DNA of 64,000 nucleotides. It comes from an uncultured Oscillospiraceae bacterium. GTDB lineage: Bacteria; Bacillota; Clostridia; Oscillospirales; Ruminococcaceae. The stretch spans positions 21,381 to 85,380 of the forward strand of contig CAZBAI010000002.1 of NCBI GenBank assembly GCA_964490175.1, read 5' to 3'. The position numbers and the translations under genes were made by a program. This document shows, piece by piece, positions 14,183 through 58,077 of the stretch; the first letter of the stretch is position 1, and every line of letters starts with the position of its first letter. The notes beneath the pieces are model-generated. The model saw nothing but the letters and a program-made list of their open reading frames with translations, did not search any database and was not told where the DNA came from.

Positions 14183-14427
14183 ATATAATCCTCTTTATTT
14201 GAAAAATCACACATATCGGATTATAGTACGAAATCATACATATGTCAAGCGCCGATATAAATTTTACAAAAATGTAATAGCTTAATGCAATCCTCTTTGC
14301 GTTTAGGCAGTGATTTTTAAGCGAAAAATGCAGATTCGGTTTACGTTTTTTGTTTTGCCGTGCTTTACATTTTGCGTAAAATATGGTACAATATTTACAG
14401 TATCAAATTATCGGAGGTTTATATATC

Positions 14428-16587
14428 TTGAATATCAATGAAATGCTTGCCCGTGAGTTTAATTTAAAAATCGGGCAGATTGACAATACGGTTGCACTGA
14501 TTGATGACGGAAAAACCATTCCGTTTATCGCACGTTATCGAAAAGAGATGACAGGTTCGCTTGATGACCAAATTTTAAGAAATATATTTGACAGATTGAA
14601 TTATTTGCGCAATCTTGCAAAGCGCAAGGAGGAAATTGCAAATTCAATTGAAGAGCAGGGGAAGATGACCGAGGAAATTCGGCTCAATATCGATAAGGCG
14701 CTGACGCTTGTTGAAGTTGAGGATATATACAGACCGTTTAAGCAAAAGCGCAAGACGAGGGGCTCTTTAGCAAGGGCTAAAGGGCTTGAAAAGCTTGCCG
14801 AAATACTTCTTTTGCAAGATTTTGATACCGACCCCGAAAAAGAAGCGATTAGTTTTATTGTGGAAAGTCAAGAGCCGGATAAGTCCGTTGCAACCGTGCA
14901 AGAAGCGCTTTGCGGCGCAATGGATATCATCGCAGAGGACGCTTCCGACGATGCCGAGCTTAGAAAATATATCAGAGAAATGTTTTATGATATCGGAAAA
15001 ATTTCATCAAAAGCTACCGATGAAGAAGCCGAAACAGTTTACAAAACCTATTATGATTACAGCGAGAGTGTGAAAAAAATCGCAGGTCACAGGGTGCTTG
15101 CGCTTGATAGGGGAGAAAAAGAGGGCGCTTTAAAGGTTTCAATCGACATTAACGAGGACAGCGGCGAAAGAGCCTGCCGCCGAAAATATGTAAAGAACGA
15201 CTCAAAGTGTGCCGAGCTTGTAAAGCTTGCCTGTGAGGACGGCTATAAAAGGCTGATTTATCCTTCTATCGAAAGGGAAATCAGAAGCGAGCTTACGGCA
15301 AATGCCTGCGAGGGCGCTATTAAAGTTTTCGGTGAAAATCTAAAGCAGCTTTTGATGCAGCCGCCTATTAAAAACAGCGTTACTCTCGGTCTTGACCCGG
15401 CTTACAGAACAGGCTGTAAAATCGCCGTTGTCGATCCGACGGGAAAGGTGCTTGATACCACCGTGGTTTACCCCACGCCGCCGCAAAGCAAAACTGCCGA
15501 GGCGCAAAAAAAGCTTGTTGCCCTTATCAAAAAGCACGGCGTTACGACAATTTCAATCGGAAACGGCACGGCAAGCCGTGAATCGGAGAGCTTTGTAGCT
15601 CAAATGCTTAAAGAAATACCCGAAAAGGTGAGCTATGCGGTTGTTTCCGAAGCGGGCGCTTCGGTTTATTCGGCTTCAAAGCTTGCCGCAGAAGAGTTTC
15701 CCGAGTTTGATGTATCATTGCGCAGTGCGGTTTCAATTGCAAGGCGCTTGCAAGACCCGCTTGCCGAGCTGGTTAAAATCGACCCTAAGGCTATCGGAGT
15801 GGGACAATATCAGCATGATATGCCGAAAAAGCGTATGGACGAAGCGCTTTGCGGCGTTGTTGAAGATTGTGTAAATAATGTCGGCGTTGACCTCAACACG
15901 GCAAGCCACAGCTTGCTTTCATATATTTCGGGAATAAACTCTGCCGTTGCGAAAAATATTGTAAAATACCGTGAAGAAAACGGCGCATTCAGCGACAGAA
16001 AACAGCTTTTAAAAGTTCCCAAGCTGGGTGCAAAGGCATATGAGCAATGCGCAGGATTTTTGCGTGTTCGCAACGGCAAAAATCCGCTTGATAACACTTC
16101 GGTTCACCCGGAGAGCTATAAAGCGGCAAAAATGCTTCTTGAAAAATGCGGATATTCACTTGACGATTTAAGCACACAAAGCCTTTCGGACTTGCAAAAA
16201 ACGGCAGAATCGCTCGGAATCGACACGCTTGCAGACCAAATCGACGTCGGAGTGCCGACCTTGCGTGATATTATCAAAGAGCTTACAAAACCGGGGCGTG
16301 ACCCACGTGACGAGCTGCCCAAGCCGATTTTGCGCAGTGGCGATATTATGGAGCTTAAAGATTTGAGCGTCGGTATGGAACTTGTGGGAACGGTGAGAAA
16401 CGTTATCGATTTCGGCGCATTTGTCGATATCGGCGTGCATGAAGACGGCCTTGTGCATATTTCGCAAATGTCAAACCGCTTTATCAAACACCCCATGGAA
16501 GTTGTTAAGGTCGGTGACGTTGTTAAGGTAAAAGTTCTTGATGTTGATGTAAAGCGCAAGCGCATTGCCTTGACAATGAAGATTTAA
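14428..16587 (+). CDS. tex: Tex-like transcription accessory protein (YqgF/HHH/S1 domains)
   Basis: The sequence runs NINEMLAREFNLKIGQIDNTVALIDDGKTIPFIARYRKE... and ends in an S1 domain (GTVRNVIDFGAFVDIG...HISQMS). I prefer the TTG at 14428, 9 nt after GGAGG, over the track start at 14383. Confidence 0.9.
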   Translation: MNINEMLAREFNLKIGQIDNTVALIDDGKTIPFIARYRKEMTGSLDDQILRNIFDRLNYLRNLAKRKEEIANSIEEQGKMTEEIRLNIDKALTLVEVEDIYRPFKQKRKTRGSLARAKGLEKLAEILLLQDFDTDPEKEAISFIVESQEPDKSVATVQEALCGAMDIIAEDASDDAELRKYIREMFYDIGKISSKATDEEAETVYKTYYDYSESVKKIAGHRVLALDRGEKEGALKVSIDINEDSGERACRRKYVKNDSKCAELVKLACEDGYKRLIYPSIEREIRSELTANACEGAIKVFGENLKQLLMQPPIKNSVTLGLDPAYRTGCKIAVVDPTGKVLDTTVVYPTPPQSKTAEAQKKLVALIKKHGVTTISIGNGTASRESESFVAQMLKEIPEKVSYAVVSEAGASVYSASKLAAEEFPEFDVSLRSAVSIARRLQDPLAELVKIDPKAIGVGQYQHDMPKKRMDEALCGVVEDCVNNVGVDLNTASHSLLSYISGINSAVAKNIVKYREENGAFSDRKQLLKVPKLGAKAYEQCAGFLRVRNGKNPLDNTSVHPESYKAAKMLLEKCGYSLDDLSTQSLSDLQKTAESLGIDTLADQIDVGVPTLRDIIKELTKPGRDPRDELPKPILRSGDIMELKDLSVGMELVGTVRNVIDFGAFVDIGVHEDGLVHISQMSNRFIKHPMEVVKVGDVVKVKVLDVDVKRKRIALTMKI

Positions 16588-34446: not shown

Positions 34447-35592
34447 TTACTGCAAAGAGATTTCGTCGCTGTGCGCTTCGTATAACGGAAGCGAGCCTAC
34501 AATCATTGTATCATAATCTCCGCAATCGTCAACACCGTTTGATGTCCACACAAAAATGCCGTCCCATCCGTTGTCGTAAGCGCCCTGATATTTTTCAAGT
34601 GCATCGCCTTGATCATCGGAAGCGGGGCATTCGCCGATTACGCTTGGGCGATCGTTTGAAAGTCCGAAGGCTTCCGGCGAGTTTTCATATGCAGTGCCGT
34701 ACCATTGTGACTGCCAGCTGTAATAATGCGTTGAATAAAAATCAAGATATCCCAAATCGCTGCCGGATTCTTGAATCAACAATTCATCGCAAACCATGTT
34801 TCCGCTTCGCATATCCGAGTTGTATTTAACAGTGGCAATGCCGACCGTTACAAGAACATCTGTGCTTTCATGAATTGCGGCGGCGCTTTTGCCGAAATAG
34901 CTTGCCATATATTCCCAGCCGATGTTGCCGCATTCGGAGTTTTCATAAACCCAATCCGGCTCATTCATAAGGTCAATGCTCCATAAATAAGGGTTATCGT
35001 CATATCTTTCCGCAAACGGCTTGATATAGCCTTGAACAAAGCTGTCGATATTATCATCGCTCATTATCATGTTCCGCCAGCAGGAATAATTTCTGTTAGA
35101 GGACTTGAAGTGGTCGAATGAAAGCATTGTCGCCATTATGTAAATTCCGTGTTTTTTGGCAATTTCAAAAAGGGCGTCGCAGTCGTTCCAGTGCTTGTCG
35201 GTGACTTCTTTGAAGCTACCGTCGGCATTTAGTTTTACACCGATCATATCACTGCAATTAAACCATATTCTGCATGAATTTATGCCGGCTTTTTTTAAAT
35301 CGGCAAAATGCCCGTCCCAAAAAGCTTCGTCAAAATCACCGCCGAAATCGTTCCAGTTATCCCAAGGGGCATTTGCTCCGTTAAACCAAATTTTGTTGCC
35401 GTTTCTGTAAAAATCCGTTCCGTCAACGGTGATTGTCAGCTCGTCGATTTGAGCTTCGGTGAGATTTACAGTCGATGAGCTTGAAGCGTCGCTTTCGCTC
35501 TTGTCGCCATCGGCGCAAGCGCATAAATTTGCACAAATTGCGAATGCAAGTGTTAACGCAGTCGCTTTTTTAATAATTTTTGAAAATTCCAT
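34447..35592 (-). CDS. Glycoside hydrolase family 5 lipoprotein (beta-mannanase-like)
   Basis: The preferred start gives MEFSKIIKKATALTLAFAICANLCACADG, a lipobox. It has the GH5 acid/base motif WSIDLMNEPDW, plus FYSTHYYSW and a nucleophile region IGECP. Confidence 0.75.
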   Translation of the reverse strand: MEFSKIIKKATALTLAFAICANLCACADGDKSESDASSSSTVNLTEAQIDELTITVDGTDFYRNGNKIWFNGANAPWDNWNDFGGDFDEAFWDGHFADLKKAGINSCRIWFNCSDMIGVKLNADGSFKEVTDKHWNDCDALFEIAKKHGIYIMATMLSFDHFKSSNRNYSCWRNMIMSDDNIDSFVQGYIKPFAERYDDNPYLWSIDLMNEPDWVYENSECGNIGWEYMASYFGKSAAAIHESTDVLVTVGIATVKYNSDMRSGNMVCDELLIQESGSDLGYLDFYSTHYYSWQSQWYGTAYENSPEAFGLSNDRPSVIGECPASDDQGDALEKYQGAYDNGWDGIFVWTSNGVDDCGDYDTMIVGSLPLYEAHSDEISLQ

Positions 35593-35738
35593 CAAATATT
35601 TTGACTTTTCAATATATACAATATAGAAAAGCCGAGAACTCCTTTCGCATAATATCAACATATTGACTATGATAACACATATCGGAGCGCATTTCAAGGT
35701 TAATATAAAATTTAACAAATATTTATTTAAAAAAAGTG

Positions 35739-35767
35739 TTGACAAATCTCAAACGGTGTGATATAAT
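35739..35767 (+). promoter_or_regulatory. Sigma70-like promoter of the second LRR lipoprotein gene
   Basis: TTGACA (35739-35744), a 17-nt spacer, then an extended -10 TGaTATAAT (35759-35767). Confidence 0.55.
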
Positions 35768-35833
35768 GTTCTAACGTAAGCGGAACAAATGTGCGCTGCG
35801 TTGAGGAGCTGTCAGAGAATTAGAGGAGCTGTT

Positions 35834-36646
35834 ATGATAAATAAGCGTTATTTTGCTGTATTGTTATCTGCCTTTCTTCTCACGTTTTCCCTCGCTTCTT
35901 GCAAAGCTTCTTCCGATACTGACGATGACGGCTTTAATACCGATGTCGTCGTTTCCGATGCTGTCGATTATAACGTTGAGGATATTCCGGCAGCACCCTC
36001 TTCGGATTTCGCTTATGTCGTGAGTGATTCAAAGGTTTTTATCACTCGTTATAACGGTCACGCCGCCGAGGTGGCGGTTCCGTCGCAAATTGATGAAATG
36101 CAGGTTACTTCAATACTTTCATCTGCATTTTTCGGAAATGAAGAACTGTGTGCGATAGTTATACCCGAGGGTGTTACCTCAATTAAAGACAACGCCTTTT
36201 ACGATTGCTCGTCGCTTGTGTTTGTTTCACTTCCCTCAACGCTTGATTTGCTCGGTGAAAGTGTTTTTGCCAATTGCACTTCGCTTCAATCGCTTACATT
36301 GCCGAGTCGCATTTCTCAAATACCCAAGCGTTGTTTTTACGGCTGTACTTCGCTGAAAGAAGTAGTAATGGGTTCTCATGTCGGTCATATCGGTGATTAT
36401 GCGTTTGCTGAGTGTGATTCGATTGTAGGTTTATCATTGTCTGATACAATTGTTTCAATCGGTGAATTTGCCTTTTTCAACTGTGAGAATTTATCTGCCG
36501 TTCAATTTTACGGCGACACCGTGTTCGCTAAAACCACGTTTTTGCAAACGCCGCAACTCACGCTTTATGTAAACAAAGGCTCACAGCCATATGAGCTTGC
36601 TACTCAATACCACATATCATATATGGTCAATAACACGATATCTTAA
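35834..36646 (+). CDS. BspA-type leucine-rich-repeat lipoprotein
   Basis: The sequence begins MINKRYFAVLLSAFLLTFSLASC (lipobox) and continues with LRR_5-type repeats. The start at 35834 follows GAGGAG. Confidence 0.8.
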   Translation: MINKRYFAVLLSAFLLTFSLASCKASSDTDDDGFNTDVVVSDAVDYNVEDIPAAPSSDFAYVVSDSKVFITRYNGHAAEVAVPSQIDEMQVTSILSSAFFGNEELCAIVIPEGVTSIKDNAFYDCSSLVFVSLPSTLDLLGESVFANCTSLQSLTLPSRISQIPKRCFYGCTSLKEVVMGSHVGHIGDYAFAECDSIVGLSLSDTIVSIGEFAFFNCENLSAVQFYGDTVFAKTTFLQTPQLTLYVNKGSQPYELATQYHISYMVNNTIS

Positions 36647-36668: not shown

Positions 36669-36745
36669 GTGCCCGTAGCTCAGCCGGATAGAGTGACTGG
36701 CTACGAACCAGTAGGTCAGGGGTTCGAATCCCTTCGGGCACGCCA
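36669..36745 (+). tRNA. tRNA-Arg (anticodon ACG)
   Basis: The 77-nt sequence GTGCCCGTAGCTCAGCCGGATAGAGTGACTGGCTACGAACCAGTAGGTCAGGGGTTCGAATCCCTTCGGGCACGCCA folds as a cloverleaf. The anticodon loop is CTACGAA, the T-loop is GTTCGAATC, and CCA is encoded. Confidence 0.95.
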
Positions 36746-36767: not shown

Positions 36768-36804
36768 TCGGATTTTGCTTTGCAAAGTCCGATTTTTGTT
36801 TTTG
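36768..36804 (+). terminator. Intrinsic terminator after tRNA-Arg
   Basis: TCGGATTTTGC pairs with GCAAAGTCCGA, followed by TTTTTGTTTTTG. Confidence 0.75.
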
Positions 36805-36914: not shown

Positions 36915-36943
36915 TTGCAAAATGTAAAATTCTGTGTTACAAT
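36915..36943 (+). promoter_or_regulatory. Sigma70-like promoter of the riboswitch-led operon
   Basis: TTGCAA (36915-36920), a 17-nt spacer, then an extended -10 TGtTACAAT (36935-36943). Confidence 0.5.
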
Positions 36944-36965
36944 ATTACAAATTTAATATGATAAC

Positions 36966-37170
36966 AGAAGATACGGTTTGAAAAGTTGTTTGCTGAGTAA
37001 ATGTAAAAGGAAATCCGGTTCGAGCCCGGAACAACCGCCATTACTGTATTTGATGGATTTAGCTTGCTTTCATGCTTTTGGGCTTTGTTGATGTGTGCCC
37101 TGAAAAGCTAAGCTTTTTGCGGTATGTTTTTACCGCTGTCATCATAAGTCAGGAACCTGCCGTGTCTTTT
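36966..37170 (+). promoter_or_regulatory. Cobalamin (B12) riboswitch aptamer
   Basis: The core AAAAGGAAATCCGGTTCGAGCCCGGAACAACCGCCATTACTGTA (~37005-37048) resembles the conserved GGGAA..GGUG..UCC..GC.G.CCCGC.ACUGUA region. The B12-box-like AAGTCAGGAACCTGCCG lies at 37146-37162. A closing P1 candidate pairs 36968-36977 with 37160-37169. The downstream genes are cobalamin-associated families. Confidence 0.65.
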
Positions 37171-37293
37171 TCGGGTCAACACAGCTTTGGTGTGAAGAGT
37201 GCAACCGGTTTATCAAACTGAAAATTCGGCTTTGTATTTTGCATCTTCACTCAATATACAGCTGCTGTGTTTTTTGTTCGGTTTATCAGTTGT

Positions 37294-37332
37294 GCCCTGT
37301 CAGCCATTTTTACGGTTGACAGGGCTTTTTTG
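37294..37332 (+). terminator. Intrinsic terminator in the riboswitch expression platform
   Basis: GCCCTGTCA (37294-37302) pairs with TGACAGGGC (37317-37325), followed by TTTTTTG. It lies 58 nt upstream of the first ORF. Confidence 0.7.
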
Positions 37333-37389
37333 TTTAAAAACAGTGATTTGGTTATCTGCCGATTTTAATATGAATGGGGGAAATGTGAA

Positions 37390-38271
37390 ATGAACGGATT
37401 TGAGCGCACTCATCCGGCTGTTTTGGCGCTGTATTTTGTTTCTGTTATGCTCATTGTTATGTTTTCTTCAAACCCTTTTTTGAATATTATAGCGCTCATC
37501 GGTGCGCTTTCGTTTTATATATCATTGAATTTCGGCGCACATCTTGTAAAAGAACTCGGCTTTTCGGCTTTGCTGTTTTTGCTCGTTGCGCTGTCAAATC
37601 CCTTATTTTCGCACAAAGGCTCTACCGTTTTGTTTTTCTTTAACAATAATCCCATAACGCTTGAATCAACGCTTTGCGGAATCGGCAATGCAATTATGCT
37701 CAGTGCCGTTATATACTGGTTTAAATGCTTAAATTCGGTCTTGAATTGCGAAAAGCTTTTGTACCTGATCGGCGGCTTTGCCCCGAAAACCGCCTTGATT
37801 ATATCCTCGTCACTGCGGTTTATTCCGCTTTTTAAATCACAAGGCGAAAAGATTCAAAATGCACAGATTACAATGGGGCTGTATTCAAGTGACGCTTGGA
37901 TCGATAAACTTTTCGGCAATGCACGTGTTTGCTCGGCGCTTATCACACAAAGTCTTGAAAATGCCGTTGATACAGGCAATTCGATGAAAGCACGTGGATA
38001 CGGCTTGAAGCCGAGGACGCATTATTTATTTTGCCCTTTCAGGTTTCGTGATGCCGTAATGCTTGTATTGCTGATTTTGGTTGATTTTTTTCTGTTTTAT
38101 TCGCTGTATATGGGTGATTTTGAATTTATGTTTTATCCGCAGATTATTTATGCGTTTCCGAGTGTTTTGTCCGTTTTTGCGTATATATTGTTTGCGCTAT
38201 TGTGTCTGTTGCCGATTTTTTTGAGGATTAAGGAGGAGCTTGTATGGATATATTGCAAATCGAAAATTTAA
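37390..38271 (+). CDS. ECF transporter transmembrane (T) component, CbiQ/EcfT family
   Basis: The 293-aa polytopic protein carries the coupling-helix A-R-G motif (SMKARGYG). It overlaps the next gene by 28 nt. Confidence 0.8.
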   Translation: MNGFERTHPAVLALYFVSVMLIVMFSSNPFLNIIALIGALSFYISLNFGAHLVKELGFSALLFLLVALSNPLFSHKGSTVLFFFNNNPITLESTLCGIGNAIMLSAVIYWFKCLNSVLNCEKLLYLIGGFAPKTALIISSSLRFIPLFKSQGEKIQNAQITMGLYSSDAWIDKLFGNARVCSALITQSLENAVDTGNSMKARGYGLKPRTHYLFCPFRFRDAVMLVLLILVDFFLFYSLYMGDFEFMFYPQIIYAFPSVLSVFAYILFALLCLLPIFLRIKEELVWIYCKSKI

Positions 38272-39941
38272 GCTTTTCCTACCCTTTAGCCAAAAGCAAC
38301 GCTTTGTCCGATATTTGCTTTTCCGTAAAATCGGGCGAATTTGTTGTTGCCTGCGGCGAATCGGGCTGCGGTAAATCCACGCTTTTGCGCCTGATTAAAA
38401 GGGAAATCACACCGTATGGAAATATACAAGGGCGTATACTTTACAGCGGTGTTGAAACTTCAAAGCTTGAGCATAGAGTGTCGGCGGCGCAAATCGGATT
38501 TATTATGCAAAATCCCGAAAGTCAAATCGTTACCGATACGGTTCGGCATGAGCTGGCGTTTACGCTTGAGAGTTTAGGGTTTGATTCAAAGGTGATTCGG
38601 CGCAAAGTTGCCGAAACAGCGTGCTATTTTGGAATTGAGCATTTGTTTGACAAAAAGACAGCCGAGCTTTCCGGCGGTGAAAAACAACTTGTAAATCTTG
38701 CTTCGATAATCGCCGCCGAGCCGAAAATCTTACTTCTTGACGAGCCGACTTCACAGCTTGACCCGATTGCCGCTTCAAATTTTATCGCCATGCTGAATAA
38801 GCTCAATCTTGAAACCGGTCTTACCGTAATTATTGTCGAACACAGGCTTGAAGAGCTTTTTGAAATCGCAGATAAAGTGCTTTTTATGAAAAACGGCAAA
38901 AATGTATTTTTCGGCAGCCCAAAACACTGCGCCGAATATTTTTCAAAAAACTCAGAGGATAATGCAAAAAAAATTTTGCCGAGCGCCGTGCGCATATATA
39001 CAGCGCTTGAAAATAACGGAAATTCGCCGCTGACGGTTAAATCCTGCCGTGAATATATATCACAAAATTATTCAAATAAAATAGATTCGCTTGAAATTTG
39101 CGAATATTGTCAAAGCGAGAAAAAAGCGTTAGAGTTTAAAGATGTGTATTTTCGCTATGGCAAAAATTCGCCCGATGTGCTCAAAGGCGCTTCGTTTTCG
39201 GTGGGAAAAGGCGAGCATTTCTGCCTTCTCGGCGGCAACGGCAGCGGCAAAACGACCGTATTGAGCATTGCCGCACGGCTTTTAAAACCGTATCACGGCA
39301 AGGTGATGATAGATGGCAAAAACGCCGATAGCTTTTCAAAAAATAAGCTGTATGACGGAAACATAGCGCTTTTGCCGCAAAATCCGCAGAATATATTTGT
39401 TGAAAAAACGTTATCTCGGGATTTGCTTTTGACCTGCAATGTTATGAAATACACTCAAAGTGAAGCTTTTGACAGAATAACTCAGCTTGCCGAGCTTCTT
39501 GATATTGCGCATTTGCTTGATTCTCACCCATATGATTTGAGTGGCGGAGAACAGCAAAAAGCGGCTTTGGCAAAGGTGCTGATTTTAAATCCCAAAATTT
39601 TGCTGCTTGATGAGCCTACAAAGGGTATTGACGCAATTGCAAAAGCAAAGCTTATTGAAATATTGAAAACTCTCAAAAGTAAGGGAATCACTGTTTTAAA
39701 CGTTACTCATGATGTTGAATTTGCAGCGCAAAGCGCCGACCGTGTGGGAATGCTGTTTGACGGTCAGCTTGTTTCAAGCGATACGCCGATTCGTTTCTTT
39801 TCGCAAAACAGCTTTTATACCACGGCGGCAAGCCGCATTGCCAAAGGAATATATAAAAATGCGGTTTTGTGCGAGCACGTTGTTGAGCTTTGCCGAAAAA
39901 ATAAAAATGCACAAATGGGTTTGCAAAATGAAAAAATATAA
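38244..39941 (+). CDS. ECF transporter fused double ATPase (EcfA-EcfA')
   Basis: The 565-aa protein has two complete ABC cassettes. These are GESGCGKST/LSGGEKQ/LLLDEPTSQLD and GGNGSGKTT/LSGGEQQ/LLLDEPTKGID. AGGAGG RBS upstream. Confidence 0.9.
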   Translation: MDILQIENLSFSYPLAKSNALSDICFSVKSGEFVVACGESGCGKSTLLRLIKREITPYGNIQGRILYSGVETSKLEHRVSAAQIGFIMQNPESQIVTDTVRHELAFTLESLGFDSKVIRRKVAETACYFGIEHLFDKKTAELSGGEKQLVNLASIIAAEPKILLLDEPTSQLDPIAASNFIAMLNKLNLETGLTVIIVEHRLEELFEIADKVLFMKNGKNVFFGSPKHCAEYFSKNSEDNAKKILPSAVRIYTALENNGNSPLTVKSCREYISQNYSNKIDSLEICEYCQSEKKALEFKDVYFRYGKNSPDVLKGASFSVGKGEHFCLLGGNGSGKTTVLSIAARLLKPYHGKVMIDGKNADSFSKNKLYDGNIALLPQNPQNIFVEKTLSRDLLLTCNVMKYTQSEAFDRITQLAELLDIAHLLDSHPYDLSGGEQQKAALAKVLILNPKILLLDEPTKGIDAIAKAKLIEILKTLKSKGITVLNVTHDVEFAAQSADRVGMLFDGQLVSSDTPIRFFSQNSFYTTAASRIAKGIYKNAVLCEHVVELCRKNKNAQMGLQNEKI

Positions 39942-40620
39942 AAATATTTTAACTATTGTATTGCTCGGATTATTCATTCCGCTTTTTACGGTTTTCGGGG
40001 CAATTGTATTCAAGCAGCGCCATTATGCCTTTATTTGCCTTTGCGTTGCGATTATTTCCTGCGTTCCTCTGTTTTACGCCTTTGAACGTGCCGAGGCGAC
40101 CTCAAAGGAGCTTGCGGTTCTTTCCGTTATGATTGCGCTTTCGGTTTGCGGCAGATTTATTTTTGCGGTTATTCCCGGATTTAAACCGATAACTGCCATT
40201 ACCGTGATTTGTGCGATTCATCTCGGCAAAGAAGCCGGCTTTGTTGTAGGTGCGCTTTCCGCTGTTGTGTCGAATTTTTATTTCGGGCAAGGGCCGTGGA
40301 CGCCTTTTCAAATGTTTGCATGGGGATTTTTGGGGCTTGCCGCAGGTCTTGCTTCCGAACCTTTAAAAAAAAGCAAGGTTGCACTGTGTATATACGGGGC
40401 GTTATCCGGCGTTATCTTTTCGCTGATTATGGATATTTGGACAACCCTTTTGATTGACGAAACCTTTAATCTTCAAAGATATATCGCCGCTGCTGTATCG
40501 GCATTGCCCTTTACAGTCGAATATGCGGTTTCCAATGTGATTTTTCTTTTGCTTTTGTCTAAACCTATCGGCGAAAAGCTTGAAAGAATTAAGATTAAAT
40601 ACGGTTTGTTTGCCGTTTAA
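39928..40620 (+). CDS. ECF transporter substrate-specific (S) component, probable corrinoid specificity (CbrT-like by context)
   Basis: The preferred ATG at 39928 overlaps the ATPase stop. The product begins MKKYKNILTIVLLGLFIPLF.... It is about 230 aa with 6 TM segments, an S-component size and topology. Specificity is inferred only from riboswitch context. Confidence 0.65.
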   Translation: MKKYKNILTIVLLGLFIPLFTVFGAIVFKQRHYAFICLCVAIISCVPLFYAFERAEATSKELAVLSVMIALSVCGRFIFAVIPGFKPITAITVICAIHLGKEAGFVVGALSAVVSNFYFGQGPWTPFQMFAWGFLGLAAGLASEPLKKSKVALCIYGALSGVIFSLIMDIWTTLLIDETFNLQRYIAAAVSALPFTVEYAVSNVIFLLLLSKPIGEKLERIKIKYGLFAV

Positions 40621-40678
40621 AACGTTCAAATTCAGCCAAGCGCTGTTTTGATATATTATGAGAAAGAGGTATAAAAAA

Positions 40679-41578
40679 ATGAAAAAATTACTTAGCACCG
40701 CAATTGCGCTTGCAATTGTTTCAACCGCTTCGGCTTTTTGTGCATCGGCAGCAGACGATGCGTCCGCATCGGTATACGTCACCGTGTCGAATAAAGGCGA
40801 GCTTGTTGCGATTTCGCAAAAAGTCAGCGTTACCGATATCGACAGTGACGGCGCTTTGACTGTAAATGATGCGCTTTATGCACTGCACGAGGATTCATAT
40901 AGCGGCGGCGCTTCGGCGGGATACAGCTCATATACGGGCAGTTACGGGCTTTCTCTCGGTATGCTTTGGGGCGATAACAGCGGAAATTTCGGTTATTGTA
41001 AAAACAATACCATGTGCTTTTCGCTTGCCGATACCGTTGCCGACGGCGATTATATAACGGCTTATATTTACAGCGATACCGATAATTATTCCGATATGTA
41101 CACGTTTTTTGATGTAAACGAGCTTGAAGCCGAGCAGAAAAGCCAAATCACGCTTACGCTTTCAGGTTTGGGCTATGACGATAATTGGAACAGCGTTACA
41201 AAGCCGGTTGAGGGTGCAAAAATCACGTTAAACGGCATTGAAACGGATTTTGTTACCGACGCACAGGGAAAAGTTACATTTTCGATTGAAGATTGCGGCG
41301 AATGTGTTATCAGTGCAAAATCCGATACACAGGTAATCGTGCCGCCCGTTTGCCTTGCCGATATCATTGAAACGCCTGATAATAACGAAGTGACAAGCAC
41401 TAATCAGACAACCGCTTTAACCCAAACGCAGGCGCAAACAACAACCGCAACCCAAGCTGCCGCAACGCCTAATACAGGTGAAGAAACAAGGACTGTGCAA
41501 TGTGCGGCATTTGTGCTGTTTTGCGTTTTGGGCGTATCGGCAATTACCGTATCCGCAAAATTAAAAAATGAAAAATAA
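40679..41578 (+). CDS. Cell-surface DUF4430-type (transcobalamin beta-domain-like) protein with sortase-type C-terminal anchor
   Basis: The signal peptide is MKKLLSTAIALAIVSTASAFCASA. A DUF4430-like module follows (VYVTVSNKGELV...LTVNDALYAL...GYCKNN...VADGDYITAYIY). Then come an Ig-like module, a T/Q-rich linker, and a TPNTGEE motif with a hydrophobic helix and a KLKNEK tail. Confidence 0.65.
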   Translation: MKKLLSTAIALAIVSTASAFCASAADDASASVYVTVSNKGELVAISQKVSVTDIDSDGALTVNDALYALHEDSYSGGASAGYSSYTGSYGLSLGMLWGDNSGNFGYCKNNTMCFSLADTVADGDYITAYIYSDTDNYSDMYTFFDVNELEAEQKSQITLTLSGLGYDDNWNSVTKPVEGAKITLNGIETDFVTDAQGKVTFSIEDCGECVISAKSDTQVIVPPVCLADIIETPDNNEVTSTNQTTALTQTQAQTTTATQAAATPNTGEETRTVQCAAFVLFCVLGVSAITVSAKLKNEK

Positions 41579-43250
41579 GCTGCATTCTCTTTTGGCGCTG
41601 CTTGCTGCAATTGCGGTATTGTTAAATTTACCCGCATTGCAGCTGTGCGGTGCCGATATTTCCGATTCTGCCGACATAATAAACCAAATCACCGAATATA
41701 AGCTCAGCGAAGGCTCATATAATGATATTGAAGAGTGGATAAACGGTGCTTTAACGCAGTCTGCCGGAGTTGATTCGGAGTGGTATATAATCGGGCTGAG
41801 CCGAATCTGCGATTATGATTTTTCAAATTATCGCAAAGCTTTGGGTGAATATTTAAGCGCAAATGAAATAGGTTCGGCTTCCTCACGCCAAAAATGCGCC
41901 CTTGCGCTGATTGCCGCAGGCGATACCGACGCTTTGTATATTCAAGAAACGCTTAATAATTCTATTGGCGAGCAGGGGATAATGAGCCTGATATTCGGCT
42001 TGCACCTTTTAAATAACGGATACATATCGCCGCAGTTTACTTTGCAGCAGGTAAAGCAACAGCTTTTGTCACTGCAATTGACTGACGGTGGCTTTGCCGT
42101 TATGGGCACTGTTTCGGATGTTGATACAACCGCCATGGCGATTTCGGCGCTTGCATCGTATTATGAAACCGATTCCGATGTTAAAGCTTGCATTGATACT
42201 GCAATTGAATTTCTTTCATCAAAGCAAAATGCTTTGGGTGATTTTTCAAGCTACGGCACTGATAATGCCGAAAGTACCGCACAGGTGCTTATAGCTCTTT
42301 CATCGCTTGGCATCGACGCTGTGAGCGATGTGCGGTTTATCAAAAATTCAAACACTATATTTGATGCTCTTGCGCAATATAGTTTGCCAAGCGGCGGATT
42401 TTCGCATACAAAAGGCGGCGAAGTCAATGAGCTGGCAACGGTGCAGGTTTTTCTCGGTGCAATTTCTTATCGGCTTATGCTTGAAAACAACGCCTCGCTT
42501 TATGACTTTGCCGATAGATTTTGCGATGAAAGCGAGAGCGATAACGTTTCTCAAAGCGAATCTTCTTACATATCTAATTCTGATAAAGATGAACAGTCTG
42601 TTTTGACAACGCATGAAAGTCAAACACAAAGCGAAATTGATGTGCCAAGCGATTCGGCAAATCTAAAAATTACGTCAAATTACAAGATATGGGCGATTTT
42701 GGCGATTTCGATTATTTGTCTTATTGTTTGCGTTGCGATGTTTGCATTAAAACGGCGCAATTTTAAAAATTATATCGTTGTGATAATATTGGCGTTGCTA
42801 TGCGTTATCTTTGTGCTTGCAACCGATTTTAAAACTGCCGATGAATTTTACAATGCAAATTCTTCGCCTGACAGTTCAAAGTATGAAAACAGCGTTACAA
42901 TTTCGATTAGTTGCGATGAAATAAAGGATAAAAATATATCGTATATTCCTGATGACGGCATTATACTTAACGATACCGTCATTGGATTTTGTGACGGCGA
43001 AAGTGTGTATGATATTCTTTTGCGTGCGTCATCCCAAAACAAAATCCGCATTGACGCAAGCGCTGTGGGCAAATCCGTTTATATCAAGGGCATTGCCGAT
43101 ATATATGAATTTGACTTCGGCGAGCTTTCCGGCTGGATGTATTATGTAAACGACGAAAAGCCTTCTGTCGGGTGCGGCGAATATATTGTCTGTCAAGATG
43201 ATGTAATCGAATGGGTTTATACCTGTGATTATACCGATAAGGACTTTTGA
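41568..43250 (+). CDS. Membrane protein with an N-terminal alpha/alpha-toroid (prenyltransferase/terpene-cyclase-like repeat) domain, a TM hairpin and a C-terminal DUF4430 domain
   Basis: The 560-aa protein starts with a signal peptide. It has repeats LQLTDGGFAV...DVDTTAMAISALASYY, KQNALGDFSS...AESTAQVLIALSSLG and LPSGGFSH...ATVQVFLGAIS. An acidic/Ser linker follows. The two TM helices are WAILAISIICLIVCVAMFAL and YIVVIILALLCVIFVLATDF, separated by KRRNFKN. The DUF4430 module reads VTISISCDE...GESVYDIL...GWMYYVNDEKPSVGCGEYIVCQDDVIEWVY. The start overlaps the previous stop. Confidence 0.7.
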   Translation: MKNKLHSLLALLAAIAVLLNLPALQLCGADISDSADIINQITEYKLSEGSYNDIEEWINGALTQSAGVDSEWYIIGLSRICDYDFSNYRKALGEYLSANEIGSASSRQKCALALIAAGDTDALYIQETLNNSIGEQGIMSLIFGLHLLNNGYISPQFTLQQVKQQLLSLQLTDGGFAVMGTVSDVDTTAMAISALASYYETDSDVKACIDTAIEFLSSKQNALGDFSSYGTDNAESTAQVLIALSSLGIDAVSDVRFIKNSNTIFDALAQYSLPSGGFSHTKGGEVNELATVQVFLGAISYRLMLENNASLYDFADRFCDESESDNVSQSESSYISNSDKDEQSVLTTHESQTQSEIDVPSDSANLKITSNYKIWAILAISIICLIVCVAMFALKRRNFKNYIVVIILALLCVIFVLATDFKTADEFYNANSSPDSSKYENSVTISISCDEIKDKNISYIPDDGIILNDTVIGFCDGESVYDILLRASSQNKIRIDASAVGKSVYIKGIADIYEFDFGELSGWMYYVNDEKPSVGCGEYIVCQDDVIEWVYTCDYTDKDF

Positions 43251-43268
43251 GAAAGGCAGTTGAACCTT

Positions 43269-43532
43269 ATGAATAAAAATGCTTTTTTCCAAAATACAGA
43301 CTGCGAGTATTTTCCTTGTCACAGCGGCGTTTGCCTTGATGATTTTAACTGTATGTTTTGTTATTGTCCGCTGTATGTTCTCGGCGATGAATGCGGCGGA
43401 AAATACAAAATATTGCAAAGCGGCGTTAAAGATTGCTCGGATTGTGTTCTCTGCCACGGCAAGAATGCATACAGAGTGATTGAATCAAAATTTACGCAGA
43501 TATCAAATATAGAGAGAAAAAACCGTAAATAA
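43269..43532 (+). CDS. Cysteine-rich small domain protein (zinc-finger-like family seen with cobalamin genes)
   Basis: The sequence is MNKNAFFQNTDCEYFPCHSGVCLDDFNCMFCYCPLYVLGDECGGKYKILQSGVKDCSDCVLCHGKNAY.... The start is ambiguous between TTG 43260 and ATG 43269. Confidence 0.65.
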   Translation: MNKNAFFQNTDCEYFPCHSGVCLDDFNCMFCYCPLYVLGDECGGKYKILQSGVKDCSDCVLCHGKNAYRVIESKFTQISNIERKNRK

Positions 43533-43565: not shown

Positions 43566-43594
43566 TTGACACAGCGCTACATATGTGATATAAT
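43566..43594 (+). promoter_or_regulatory. Sigma70 consensus promoter of the Mn riboswitch-mntP unit
   Basis: TTGACA (43566-43571), a 17-nt spacer, then an extended -10 TGaTATAAT (43586-43594). Confidence 0.65.
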
Positions 43595-43600
43595 ATCCGC

Positions 43601-43700
43601 CATATGAGGGAGTAGCAGGCGCTTAATCAGCGCAGCAAGTCAACATTCTAACCTCTTAGATTGCAGAGGTTTGGCTTGCTTTAATTTGCAAGACTCATGC
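43601..43700 (+). promoter_or_regulatory. yybP-ykoY (Mn2+) riboswitch aptamer
   Basis: P1 pairs ATGAG with CTCAT. The conserved GGGAGTAGC, AAGTCAACAT and TTGGCTTGC...TTGCAAGAC elements are present. It lies upstream of an MntP gene, the canonical target. Confidence 0.8.
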
Positions 43701-43746
43701 AAAGTCGGCTTGTGCCATGCGTGGGTTTTGTGTTTGCTTAAAAATG

Positions 43747-43785
43747 CCAAGCGTGGTTTTGCCGTGCTTGGTTTATTTTTATTTT
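43747..43785 (+). terminator. Intrinsic terminator of the Mn riboswitch expression platform
   Basis: CCAAGCGTGG (43747-43756) pairs with CCGTGCTTGG (43762-43771), followed by TTTATTTTTATTTT. Confidence 0.7.
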
Positions 43786-43800
43786 AGCGGAGTGATGAAT

Positions 43801-44385
43801 ATGAATTTTGGTTTTGCTTTCTTTTTCAACAGTATTTTACTTGGCGTAGGGCTTGCAATGGATGCTTTTTCGGTTTCGCTTGCAAACGGTTTGAATGAAC
43901 CTAAAATGAAAAAATCGAAAATGTGCGGAATTTCCGGCGTTTTTTGCGCATTTCAATTTGCAATGCCGATGATTGGATGGATATGCGTTTCAACCATAGC
44001 ACAGTATTTTAAGGCGTTTGAAAAATGCATTCCGTGGATTGCGCTTGTTTTGCTTTCATATATCGGCGGCAAAATGTTGTTTGAGGGCATAAAAAACAAA
44101 GGCGGCGATGAGAATTGCGCCGCTGTCGGAGTGGGAGCGCTTTTGTTGCAGGGCGTTGCCACTTCTATCGACGCTTTATCCGTAGGATTTACCATTGCCG
44201 ATTACGACCTGCCGCACGCTTGCTGTGCCTGCCTTTTAATCGGTGCGGTTACATTTTTGATTTGTTTTGCAGGGCTTGCAATCGGAAAAAAAGCCGGCAC
44301 AAGACTTGCGGGAGGCGCAGGGATTCTCGGCGGTTCGATACTTATATTTATCGGGCTTGAAATATTTATATCGGGCGTTATGTAA
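43801..44385 (+). CDS. mntP: Manganese efflux pump MntP
   Basis: The sequence begins MNFGFAFFFNSILLGVGLAMDAFSVSLANG... and has a second DALSVG motif (TSIDALSVGFT). I prefer the ATG at 43801, 8 nt after GGAG. The longer track ORF would run through the riboswitch terminator. Confidence 0.9.
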   Translation: MNFGFAFFFNSILLGVGLAMDAFSVSLANGLNEPKMKKSKMCGISGVFCAFQFAMPMIGWICVSTIAQYFKAFEKCIPWIALVLLSYIGGKMLFEGIKNKGGDENCAAVGVGALLLQGVATSIDALSVGFTIADYDLPHACCACLLIGAVTFLICFAGLAIGKKAGTRLAGGAGILGGSILIFIGLEIFISGVM

Positions 44386-55828: not shown

Positions 55829-56052
55829 TCATTTCCTCCTTTACCGTATTGTACATATATATTGTACATTATTATTTTAAAGCTTTTGTTAAATTATTTT
55901 TAATATAAAAATACGACGTGTTTTAACGGTGATTTAACATTGAAAAGATATATTTTACTTACACAAAGGGCAATATTAGCCGCGGAATGTTTTTTTAAAA
56001 TTTCCGATTGCCCGAAATATCACTAAAATCAACATTTTTGGGAGGAATATCA

Positions 56053-58077
56053 ATGCTTACAAAAGCATTAAAGCGAACGCTGTCGGGCGCTTGTGCTGTC
56101 AGTGTTGCCGCTTGCTGTATGCAAAGCGCCTGCGCTACGGTCACCTTATCGGGCGATGCAAACGGCGACTCTTGTTTTAATTCAAGCGACCTTGCAACAG
56201 CGCAGAGTGTTTTGCTGCGTGCGCAGAGCATAGGTTCACAGTATATGGAAAACTGTGATATGAACAGTGACGGCATTTTCAACGCAGTTGACCTGCTCAT
56301 TATGCGCCGCACCCCGTTTGGCGGTGCTTTGGATACGGACAACACCGTCACCGAAATACAATATGCCGAATCAGGCGTTACACTTTACAACGCCTCGGGC
56401 AATGTTGTTGAGGCAAACAAAGCTTTGAACGTTACTGTCGAAAACAACACATACGTTACGGTTATCGCTCCGAGCGATATTGACGTTTCCGGCACTTGTT
56501 CTTCGGGTCAGCTTGCGGTAGACTGTGATAAAACAGCCTATGTTGACGGTGCTGTTACCTTTAATCTCAAGGGCTTGACCCTTTCAAACACATCTACATC
56601 GCCGATTTATATTGCCGCAATTGACGATGAGGTCGTATTCGCCAGCAAAAAAGGCTATACCAACACGATTACGGACGGAAGCGATTATACAAACGCTTCG
56701 GGTGATTGCGGTGCGATTTATGCCTGTGATGACATCAAATTCAAGGGCAAGGGCGTTTTGAATGTAAACGGCAACTGTCAAGACGGTATTGTTTGCAAAA
56801 ACGATATCAAGATTTGGAACGGCACGCTTAACGTTACAGCGGCAGATGACGGTATAAGGGGAAAGGATTCGGTAAGAATCGGCGACCCCGACGCTACCGA
56901 TTATTCATCGCTGAATGTAACCGTAAAAGCTTTGGGCGGTGACGGAATCAAATCAACGGACGACTCCGACACAAGCTGCGGATTTGTTCGCATAAACGGC
57001 GGCAATATAAATGTTAATTCCTACGGCGATTGCATTTTCGGCGTGTATAATGTCGAAATCAACGGCGGCTCATTGGAGCTTGTATCGGAAACCACATACG
57101 GAACGACCAGCTCAAAGGGCATAAAATCCGGATATACCGATGATGACACAGACACCGAATATACCGGTAATGTCACAATCAACGGCGGATATATGAATAT
57201 TAACACAACCGATGACTGCATTAACTCAAACGGCAATATCGACCTTATCGGCGGTCAGATGGAGCTGACGATAAACGCAACAAGTTTTTCCGATGATAAA
57301 GACGGACGTCAGGCAATTCATGCCGATGACACTATCAATATCGGCACAAGCGGAAACGAAACCGTTTATGACGATGTAACGATTATTGTATATAACGCTT
57401 ATGAGGGTCTTGAAGGATATAATATCAACCAGATGAGCGGCAGCGTAATAGTCAATTCATATGATGACGGCTTTAACGTTGCGGGCGGTGCGGATGATTC
57501 CGGCTCTTCCGATTTCCGTCCCGGAATGGGCGGCGGCATGAGTGGTTTCGGCAGTTCTTCCACTGCCGGTGACCTTGTAATCAGCGGCGGATTCTCACTT
57601 GTAAATGCTCAAGACGGTGATCATGACGGCTACGATTCCAACGGAAACATCATCATTTCGGGCGGCATTGCCATCTCCAACGGCAACGACCCGTTTGACT
57701 GGGGCGACAGCGGTACAATTACCTATTCCGGCGGTGTTTATGTTGAAAACACAGGTTCAGGCGGCATGGGCGGCTTTGGAGGAATGGGCGGCTTCGGCGG
57801 CATGGGCAACAGTTCATCAATGACCCAATCTGTCAGCGTATCGACATCGCTCAGTGCGCAAACAAGAATCACGCTTTGCGACGGCTCGGGCAATGTTATC
57901 GTTTCGTTTATTGCGGATAAGAGCGTAACTTCGCTGGTTGCAGGCTGCACGGCATACAGCGGCGCTGCATTCTATTCCGGCGGAACGTTGACAAATTCAA
58001 CTTATTTCCAAACGCTTGACGATACTCAGCTTGCAGCATACGGCGGAACGTTATCAAACGGCACAAAGCTCGGCTGA
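56053..58077 (+). CDS. Secreted N-terminal-dockerin protein with a beta-helix carbohydrate-binding (Cthe_2159-like) region and Gly/Met-rich repeats
   Basis: The signal peptide is MLTKALKRTLSGACAVSVAACCMQSACA. The dockerin segments are GDANGDSCFNSSDLATAQ and DMNSDGIFNAVDLLIMRR. Repetitive D-G-I/ING-G beta-helix-like turns follow, then GGMGGFGGMGGFGGMG near the C-terminus. The start at 56053 follows GGAGG. Confidence 0.7.
   Translation: MLTKALKRTLSGACAVSVAACCMQSACATVTLSGDANGDSCFNSSDLATAQSVLLRAQSIGSQYMENCDMNSDGIFNAVDLLIMRRTPFGGALDTDNTVTEIQYAESGVTLYNASGNVVEANKALNVTVENNTYVTVIAPSDIDVSGTCSSGQLAVDCDKTAYVDGAVTFNLKGLTLSNTSTSPIYIAAIDDEVVFASKKGYTNTITDGSDYTNASGDCGAIYACDDIKFKGKGVLNVNGNCQDGIVCKNDIKIWNGTLNVTAADDGIRGKDSVRIGDPDATDYSSLNVTVKALGGDGIKSTDDSDTSCGFVRINGGNINVNSYGDCIFGVYNVEINGGSLELVSETTYGTTSSKGIKSGYTDDDTDTEYTGNVTINGGYMNINTTDDCINSNGNIDLIGGQMELTINATSFSDDKDGRQAIHADDTINIGTSGNETVYDDVTIIVYNAYEGLEGYNINQMSGSVIVNSYDDGFNVAGGADDSGSSDFRPGMGGGMSGFGSSSTAGDLVISGGFSLVNAQDGDHDGYDSNGNIIISGGIAISNGNDPFDWGDSGTITYSGGVYVENTGSGGMGGFGGMGGFGGMGNSSSMTQSVSVSTSLSAQTRITLCDGSGNVIVSFIADKSVTSLVAGCTAYSGAAFYSGGTLTNSTYFQTLDDTQLAAYGGTLSNGTKLG

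Follow-up and report, generated by a model that had tools for sequence, protein, structure and literature searches.

Can an energy-coupling factor (ECF) transporter be supplied by binding proteins displayed outside the cell membrane? ECF transporters are canonically without a soluble binding protein (PMC5997447), and the question is raised by an operon in a 64,000-nucleotide stretch of DNA from an uncultured Oscillospiraceae bacterium (assembly GCA_964490175.1, contig CAZBAI010000002.1, positions 21,381 to 85,380), which is called the window here and whose own numbering is used throughout. In this operon, which lies on the forward strand, a cobalamin riboswitch precedes genes for a T component, a fused double ATPase (AA') and an S component, followed by genes for two surface proteins, P4 and P5, with predicted likeness to the vitamin B12 carriers of animals. 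With moderate confidence we read it as a B12-repressed corrinoid acquisition operon, in which P4 and P5 form a capture module feeding an importer of the ECF-CbrT type. Confidence is higher for the riboswitch and the importer, and lower for the hand-off between the capture module and the importer. An earlier note, written from the letters of this DNA, had proposed much the same arrangement.

Regulation of the operon by B12 is predicted from its leader. A search with cmscan matched the cobalamin riboswitch family RF00174 at 36957-37178 with 42.0 bits (gathering score 31.5, E 3.3e-7). The match spans model positions 1-189, which is the entire model, and it is the single cobalamin riboswitch match in the Rfam scan of the whole window. 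The B12 box, AAGTCAGGAACCTGCCG (37146-37162), lies inside this aptamer. The intrinsic terminator of the expression platform (37294-37335) has a 12-bp stem with 8 GC pairs, an 8-nt loop and a T-run; the terminator scan placed its hairpin at 37294-37325, 116 nt beyond the aptamer end, followed by TTTTTTGTTT. This hairpin is present in both the minimum free energy and the centroid folds of 37140-37340 (z = -3.5), and no antiterminator was resolved in the leader. A ribosome-binding site, GGGGGA, and then the ATG at 37390 follow 3' of the terminator. These features make the leader a true cobalamin riboswitch whose platform is of the terminator type and for which ligand-dependent control is predicted, and in both aptamer and terminator the earlier note was right. 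The promoter that it had placed at 36915-36943 is a weaker case. The site is there (TTGCAA-17-TACAAT with TG upstream of the -10 hexamer, 9/12 matches in a consensus scan) and ends 14 nt before the aptamer start. However, promoter-like sites are not enriched in this region over shuffled sequence (23 found versus 18 expected), so it is the position of this site that speaks for it, and statistically it is not distinctive. The upstream boundary of the operon is a tRNA-Arg(ACG) gene at 36669-36745, and a terminator-like hairpin (36768-36792) was seen between this gene and the operon promoter.

The first three genes encode the transporter. The EcfT/CbiQ-like T component (37390-38271, 293 residues) matches Pfam CbiQ over residues 9-212 (3.7e-10), and its gene overlaps by 28 nt that of the fused EcfA-EcfA' double ATPase (38244-39941, 565 residues). 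The latter has two ABC_tran domains (4e-58) and exceeds the cutoffs of both NCBIfam equivalogs (ECF_ATPase_1, 359 bits with a cutoff of 315; ECF_ATPase_2, 334 bits with a cutoff of 330). After a further overlap of 14 nt comes the S component (39928-40620, 230 residues), which matches Pfam S-component families. Since no CbrT-specific Pfam or NCBIfam model exists, and CbrT itself matches only the generic S families, its affiliation was read from solved structures. Its best solved relative in a single-sequence search is 6FNP_A, the S component of ECF-CbrT (E 5e-10). A family profile of 32 orthologous S components matched 6FNP_A at 2e-17 with 66.8 bits, while the next-ranking S components, 4HZU_S and RibU, scored 27.4 and 22.9 bits (2e-5 and 5e-4). 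By these comparisons the S component groups with CbrT, about 40 bits ahead of other S components, and it does not fall in a non-corrinoid specificity group. The ECF-CbrT of Lactobacillus delbrueckii (6FNP; Santos et al. 2018, PMC5997447) has been proven to import cobalamin and cobinamide. Its CbrT is homologous to the S component of the window; however, it works with a shared group II ECF module and without accessory surface proteins. The T, AA' and S components of the window, as far as their sequences tell, are a dedicated (group I) ECF transporter with all parts co-encoded and the two ATPases fused. The T component and the double ATPase of the earlier note are therefore upheld.

Two segments of the transporter were also observed that extend beyond the domains described above. 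Residues 1-57 of the S component (39928-40100) form a conserved N-terminal extension of about 55 residues with two predicted transmembrane helices, which is without counterpart in CbrT, and residues 213-293 of the T component (38026-38271) add about 80 hydrophobic residues past the CbiQ domain. These extensions could be contact sites for the membrane hairpin of P5 that is described next.

P5 (41568-43250, 560 residues) is a membrane-tethered protein and carries the closest likeness to the B12 carriers. Pfam DUF4430 matches its residues 477-552 with 3.6e-15 and 56.6 bits (gathering score 23.8), together with a weak match to the toroid of prenyltransferases and squalene cyclases. A signal peptide is followed by an alpha/alpha toroid (residues 32-305), a disordered acidic linker (319-369), a transmembrane hairpin and the DUF4430 beta-domain (441-552). 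The two helices of the hairpin (372-393 and 399-418) are joined by a basic cytoplasmic loop, KRRNFKN, which indicates an out-in-out topology with both globular domains outside the cell. The hairpin is conserved in the family. In the AlphaFold2 model, built with 61 homologues (mean predicted local distance difference test score, pLDDT, 83.8), the beta-domain runs strand-strand-helix-hairpin-strands, a beta-grasp with a hairpin after the helix. When this model was compared with the PDB by Foldseek, the top 15 matches were exclusively intrinsic factor (2PMV), transcobalamin (2BB6, 2BB5, 4ZRP and 8IXU) and haptocorrin (4KKI), with E from 1.9e-7 to 2.6e-6, probability 1.0 and 552-582 aligned columns covering both domains. 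After the B12 carriers in this list come terpene cyclases and prenyltransferases, which match the toroid alone. The P5 family comprises more than 1257 clusters, and in it DUF4430 is always fused to the toroid. As modelled, P5 is thus a two-domain structural homologue of intrinsic factor, transcobalamin and haptocorrin, and corrinoid binding is predicted for it; its description in the earlier note as a membrane protein of toroid and DUF4430 holds. Like these carriers (2PMV, 2BB5/2BB6, 4KKI), P5 has an N-terminal alpha6/alpha6 toroid and a C-terminal beta-grasp. Unlike them, it shares only 10-12% identity, has the disordered linker of about 50 residues and the two-helix hairpin inserted between its domains, and is tethered to the membrane rather than soluble.

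P4 (40658-41578, 306 residues), whose gene follows that of the S component after a gap of 37 nt and overlaps the P5 gene by 11 nt, is more divergent. Translation more likely starts at 40679, given that NCBI models 299 residues and homologues begin with MKK. A signal peptide precedes a divergent SLBB/DUF4430-like beta-grasp domain (about residues 36-151, the N-domain), an Ig-like domain (155-237), a disordered Thr/Gln-rich linker and a C-terminal helix with an anchor signal. The AlphaFold2 model has a mean pLDDT of 86.2, and means over blocks of 10 residues are 94-98 across residues 41-240. In this model the N-domain is ordered as strand, strand, helix, hairpin and three strands (b-b-a-[b-b]-b-b-b), and this order is common to the N-domain of P4 and the beta-domain of P5. 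It is the topology of the transcobalamin clade of SLBB domains as defined by Burroughs et al. 2007 (Biol Direct 2:4, PMC1796856), and we count it toward remote homology. Direct annotation gave nothing: no family of Pfam, DUF4430 (PF14478) included, or of NCBIfam matched P4 even at E<=10, none of the 120 P4 homologues listed is annotated as DUF4430, and searches of the PDB with the single sequence and with the family profile returned no match. When 350 diverse copies of the N-domain were aligned with DUF4430 domains by hhalign, a probability of 84.5% was obtained (P 7e-6, 79-95 columns), with the aligned segments following the order of the secondary-structure elements, while controls with reversed profiles, with 20 column shuffles and with unrelated domains never exceeded 6%. 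From these profiles and the model, the N-domain is probably a remote homologue of DUF4430 that lies outside Pfam coverage. Thus the DUF4430 label of the earlier note stands as probable remote homology, and not as a family match.

The N-domain defines a large family of its own. Its profile (40763-41152, residues 36-165), searched against 1.84 billion representative proteins, gathered 1302 representative clusters at 50% identity without a Pfam model. It occurs in 1-5 copies, often 2-5, and in tandem in proteins of up to 3720 residues; its partners (among P0241-P0385) include SLH domains, PQQ-like beta-propellers, Ig-like domains, and the toroid with DUF4430. In 14 representatives both the N-domain and the toroid/DUF4430 domain types are present, and in the fusions P0301 and P0385 the N-domain, toroid and DUF4430 stand in one chain.

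The C-terminus of P4 reads TPNTGEE...AAFVLFCVLGVSAITVSAKLKNEK, a non-canonical TPNTG followed by a hydrophobic stretch and the basic KLKNEK. An xPxTG-type sorting signal is present in 32 of the 120 P4 homologues, where SPKTG is commonest; a plain membrane anchor takes its place in the remaining homologues, or SLH domains where the relatives are more distant. The sortase of Clostridioides difficile uses the motif (S/P)PXTG. No sortase was found among the window open reading frames (ORFs) scanned with Pfam. The C-terminus of P4 looks by its sequence like a sortase signal, so the sortase anchoring claimed by the earlier note becomes a sortase-type or membrane anchor. A separate feature of the N-domain is a nearly invariant D-x-D-x-D-G-x-x-T-x-x-D loop at residues 60-71 (40835-40870), between strand 2 and the helix, which resembles the calcium-binding loop of EF-hands and dockerins and, when compared with DUF4430, is inserted. 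In Bacteroides, BtuH2 holds the nucleotide-loop phosphate of B12 through a Na/Ca site (PMC13616437), and a connection of the P4 loop with this site, by analogy, is speculation.

The coupling of P4 and P5 with the transporter and with B12 control was surveyed across genomes. Relatives found with the P5 family profile occur in at least 479 species-representative genomes, and the counts given here use the best 80 loci, all of which are from gut or rumen Clostridia (Oscillospiraceae, Acutalibacteraceae, Lachnospiraceae and Ruminococcus). P4 lies directly 5' of P5 in 79 of the 80, and T-AA'-S adjoins the pair on the same strand in 70. Two gene orders account for these: P4-P5-T-AA'-S in 56 loci and T-AA'-S-P4-P5, the order of the window, in 14. 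Of the rest, P4-P5 stand alone in 6 loci with at least 2.5 kb of downstream DNA present, and contig ends prevent a call in 4. The nearest locus, L001, comes from an Oscillospiraceae metagenome-assembled genome (MAG) of goat rectum and has 58% identity in P5 and the same gene order.

Riboswitches accompany most of these loci. RF00174 was found by Rfam directly 5' of the first cluster gene in seven of the eight loci first tested, and a covariance model built from those hits was then applied to all 80. With this custom model, at least one aptamer lies on the operon strand 5' of the first gene in 67 loci. Contig ends truncate four of the 13 loci that were negative, and hence 67 of 76 evaluable loci are positive. 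Sixteen loci have two aptamers, the second of them between P5 and T (for example, 6815-6984 and 9705-9837 in L025); the others are L018, L022, L028, L029, L033, L040, L044, L057, L058, L062, L063, L064, L071, L073 and L078. Both aptamers were confirmed by Rfam in seven of eight such loci tested. The six solitary P4-P5 loci, with no ECF genes nearby, also sit behind their own aptamer. P4-P5 are therefore under their own B12 riboswitch in 22 loci, which is the strongest evidence here for a corrinoid ligand. The linkage of DUF4430 genes, B12 riboswitches and ECF genes to which the earlier note had pointed is thus borne out widely. Some side observations were made at these loci: those with two riboswitches are from Acutalibacteraceae MAGs except L018, L029 and L064, which are labelled "Clostidia bacterium"; L029 has tandem thiamine pyrophosphate riboswitches 3' of the cluster (14420-14668); and in L019 (12950-13186 and 4920-5101) the S gene is followed immediately by a T-box leader, with a 6S RNA upstream.

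P4 and P5 are coupled to the ECF genes both genomically and in regulation, and a corrinoid capture module is our best reading of them; the natural fusions and an independent published prediction, discussed below, add to the case. According to this reading, when intracellular cobamide is low, the terminator would be bypassed and all components would be made. Corrinoid would be captured by P4, displayed out in the wall. P5, which its hairpin keeps at the membrane, would sandwich the corrinoid between toroid and beta-domain in the manner of transcobalamin and would pass it to the S component, from where EcfT and EcfAA' would power its uptake through ATP hydrolysis. Transcobalamin and intrinsic factor have beta-domains that bind cobalamin even in isolation, which makes a solitary SLBB binder such as P4 plausible.

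The idea itself is not new. Burroughs et al. (PMC1796856) described secreted or anchored transcobalamin-like SLBB proteins beside CbiO- and CbiQ-like genes, predicted them to be B12 scavengers, and proposed that animals had acquired their B12 carriers from low-GC Gram-positives. The operon of the window belongs to this class in a nearly point-for-point fit: signal peptides, Gram-positive anchors, SLBB with an alpha/alpha toroid, a second paralogous SLBB protein in the operon, fusions with Ig folds and beta-propellers, and CbiO-like ATPase and CbiQ-like membrane neighbours. However, that work was a computational prediction, in which neither riboswitch control nor a CbrT-type S component is mentioned, nor a membrane hairpin separating the toroid from the SLBB domain. 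In addition, one homologous system has been studied by genetics, the operon Lsa1836-1840 of Lactobacillus sakei, which encodes an S component, fused AA', T component and two secreted transcobalamin-like proteins. It differs from the operon of the window in that the alpha-like and beta-like domains are on separate proteins, the order is S-AA'-T, heme was proposed as substrate, a riboswitch is unreported, and there is no counterpart of the P4 architecture of N-domain, Ig-like domain and anchor. Hence the earlier note overstated the novelty of the accessory module, since it was predicted in 2007 and the homologous L. sakei operon has already been deleted and studied. The present operon is a real, ordinary-looking member of that predicted system. 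The present analysis adds to it in several respects: it quantifies riboswitch control, including the separate control of P4-P5, places the S component with CbrT, identifies a conserved membrane hairpin in P5, sizes the P4-type domain family, which has no Pfam model, and records natural P4-P5 fusions.

Several observations weigh against a corrinoid capture module, and they concern each of its parts. For the leader, the aptamer of the window is the lowest-scoring of those compared (42 bits, against 77-89 in four of the seven other Rfam-positive loci) and contains several non-canonical pairs. Moreover, nine loci with intact upstream DNA (L016, L030, L038, L039, L043, L053, L056, L074 and L079), most of them with ECF genes, have no riboswitch by either the Rfam gathering score or the custom model. 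For P4, hhalign with shallow alignments gave only 0.8% between its N-domain and the DUF4430 of P5, and the 84.5% obtained with the diverse copies is below the 90-95% customary for confidence in HH comparisons. Foldseek with the full-length P4 model returned generic Ig-like matches only, because the second, Ig-like domain drives them. For P5, the root-mean-square deviation (rmsd) from the B12 carriers is 13-16 Å and the TM-score 0.40-0.53, so the similarity is per domain, and the modelled orientation of the two domains is no closed B12 sandwich. Pfam Cobalamin_bind (PF01122) did not match P5 at E<=0.01, the B12 carriers were absent from sequence and profile searches of the PDB with P5, and the toroid is by sequence nearer to squalene-hopene cyclases (6e-8, family profile). 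Finally, our searches of the literature that was searchable turned up no experiment in which corrinoid binding by such proteins was tested directly, and the L. sakei operon, the sole homologous one tested experimentally, affected heme uptake.

Among the other explanations, the one that survives best is that P4 and P5 bind corrinoids without feeding the importer. They may serve as a surface store, as a competitive sink, for selection among analogues, or for stripping host carriers. ECF-CbrT of L. delbrueckii imports B12 without any accessory protein (PMC5997447), P4-P5 occur without nearby ECF genes in six loci and under separate riboswitch control in 16, and the P4 domain also forms the tandem arrays of the giant surface proteins noted above. 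However, the ECF genes adjoin P4-P5 in 70 of 80 loci, and adjacency in two gene orders argues for selection on the linkage. Moreover, the conserved hairpin of P5 keeps the binding domains at the plane of the membrane, where the S component sits. We thus regard a corrinoid binder detached from import as unlikely.

A second explanation is that the system imports heme, or tetrapyrroles generally, and that the transcobalamin-like proteins scavenge heme as proposed for L. sakei. The parts of that operon match those of the window, with separate beta-like and alpha-like transcobalamin proteins, and heme and corrins are related macrocycles. Its deletion cut the 57Fe-hemin content of cells 5- to 8-fold, and its overexpression increased it (bioRxiv 10.1101/864751). 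However, the effect was seen at 5 uM hemin and above only and was absent at 1 uM, the experiments never included cobalamin, and heme binding by the accessory proteins was addressed by docking only. In Clostridia, the cobalamin riboswitch in 67 of 76 evaluable loci, its separate control of P4-P5 in 22, and the grouping of the S component with CbrT all speak for a corrinoid. S components of ECF transporters have affinities that are roughly nanomolar, and an effect that needs at least 5 uM, far above this range, weighs against heme as the substrate. We consider heme import improbable, somewhat more so than a detached binder.

A third explanation takes the toroid of P5 as an envelope enzyme or a lipid- or glycan-binding module of the squalene-cyclase/prenyltransferase class, with its likeness to B12 carriers being a matter of shared fold. 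In addition to the profile match with squalene-hopene cyclase, terpene cyclases superpose on the toroid with rmsd 4.4-5 Å over about 283 columns, and two of the three Asp in the DXDD motif of cyclases have aligned counterparts in D184 and D186. The P5 motif, D184-V-D186-T187 (DVDT; 42117-42128), is opposite D374-V-D376-D377 of squalene-hopene cyclase. D186 is invariant in the family, but the third Asp is Thr or Val, and hence the DXDD motif of class II terpene cyclases is not intact in P5; judged by sequence, DVDT seems to be a vestige that the toroid has kept from a cyclase-like ancestor. Against an enzyme there are also the extracytoplasmic place of P5, its constant fusion to DUF4430, its position under a B12 riboswitch, and fold matches over two domains that are B12 carriers exclusively. 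This explanation is therefore highly improbable. A cobalt transporter of the CbiMNQO type is suggested by the Pfam CbiQ and NCBIfam cbiO-type matches and by B12-riboswitch regulation of cobalt transporters as well (PMC11477304), but it is effectively refuted, since the operon has no CbiM or CbiN, the CbiQ equivalog scores 20.7 with a cutoff of 111.8, and the S component matches CbrT and not CbiM.

The corrinoid capture module may be taken one step further, to a two-tier relay specific to the Gram-positive envelope, in which P4 would bind first and P5 would dock on the ECF-CbrT importer, maybe through the extra transmembrane segments of S and T. We offer this step tentatively and think it rather doubtful. 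Its nearest functional parallel is in Bacteroides thetaiotaomicron, where the surface-displayed B12 binders BtuJ, BtuH, BtuK and BtuG on Ig-like stalks feed a transporter (PMC13616437), as we suppose for P4 and P5. That relay is also under B12 riboswitches, shows fusions of relay components and has a two-riboswitch operon (operon 1), which the 16 two-riboswitch loci found here parallel. However, its proteins have jellyroll, novel globular and beta-propeller folds, are anchored as outer-membrane lipoproteins and feed the TonB-dependent BtuB, so that the likeness is a functional analogy only. BtuF, the periplasmic partner of BtuCD, likewise binds corrinoids outside the cytoplasm and hands them to an importer of the ABC type, but its class III substrate-binding fold is unrelated.

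The value of these results is to sharpen and extend an existing prediction. A 2026 review calls extracellular cobamide capture in Firmicutes "entirely uncharacterized" (PMC13616437), and a module that no fewer than 479 species-level genomes from Clostridia of gut and rumen carry is a concrete candidate for experiments. Its tie to B12 riboswitches is tighter than previously documented. If P4 and P5 do feed the importer, this would be a case of extracytoplasmic binding proteins serving an ECF transporter, which the textbook definition does not allow, and a biochemical handle would be gained on the question of heme versus B12 in L. sakei. If the two-tier relay were also true, it would give ECF transporters their first described stage of the soluble binding-protein type. 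Among living bacteria, P5 would then represent the relative of the animal B12 carriers, and in the gut it might be able to draw B12 from those of the host.

The sixth gene of the operon requires separate consideration. After a gap of 9 nt, it encodes a small Cys-rich protein of 90 residues (43260-43532; PF04071, 2e-25), for which the NCBI model starts at the ATG at 43269. Six same-strand ORFs with short junctions are present as the earlier note described, but the conserved unit is of five genes, since the Cys-rich gene lies beside the cluster in only 4 of the 80 loci, the nearest locus, L001, among them. Its homologues elsewhere adjoin an amino-acid permease, an aldehyde:ferredoxin oxidoreductase and a fumarase, and we found no literature mention of PF04071. 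We therefore reject the protein as a B12-linked component, because it is rarely present and the neighbourhoods of its homologues are unrelated to B12; it is a lineage-specific passenger, whose gene is probably co-transcribed with the others. Beyond it, a promoter of perfect consensus (43566-43594, TTGACA-17-TATAAT with TG) serves the gene of the manganese efflux protein MntP (43717-44385), which L001 also has, and marks the 3' boundary of the operon. Behind this promoter and upstream of the MntP gene, a sub-threshold match to the yybP-ykoY manganese riboswitch (RF00080) was seen at 43608-43752 (21.7 bits, gathering score 45; E 2.7e-4 when 261 nt were searched).

Elsewhere in the window, no B12 biosynthesis genes or obviously B12-dependent enzymes were found among the ORFs scanned with Pfam, and 64 kb is too short to judge auxotrophy. 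Two ORFs have no Pfam match at E<=1e-5, one of 432 residues on the reverse strand with an apparent signal or lipoprotein-like N-terminus (34447-35745) and one of 393 residues on the forward strand (5579-6760). Two BspA-type leucine-rich-repeat surface proteins and a dockerin/Cthe_2159 carbohydrate-binding protein (35789-36646, 6779-8371 and 56008-58077) are consistent with a fibre-associated Oscillospiraceae or Ruminococcus-like gut organism.

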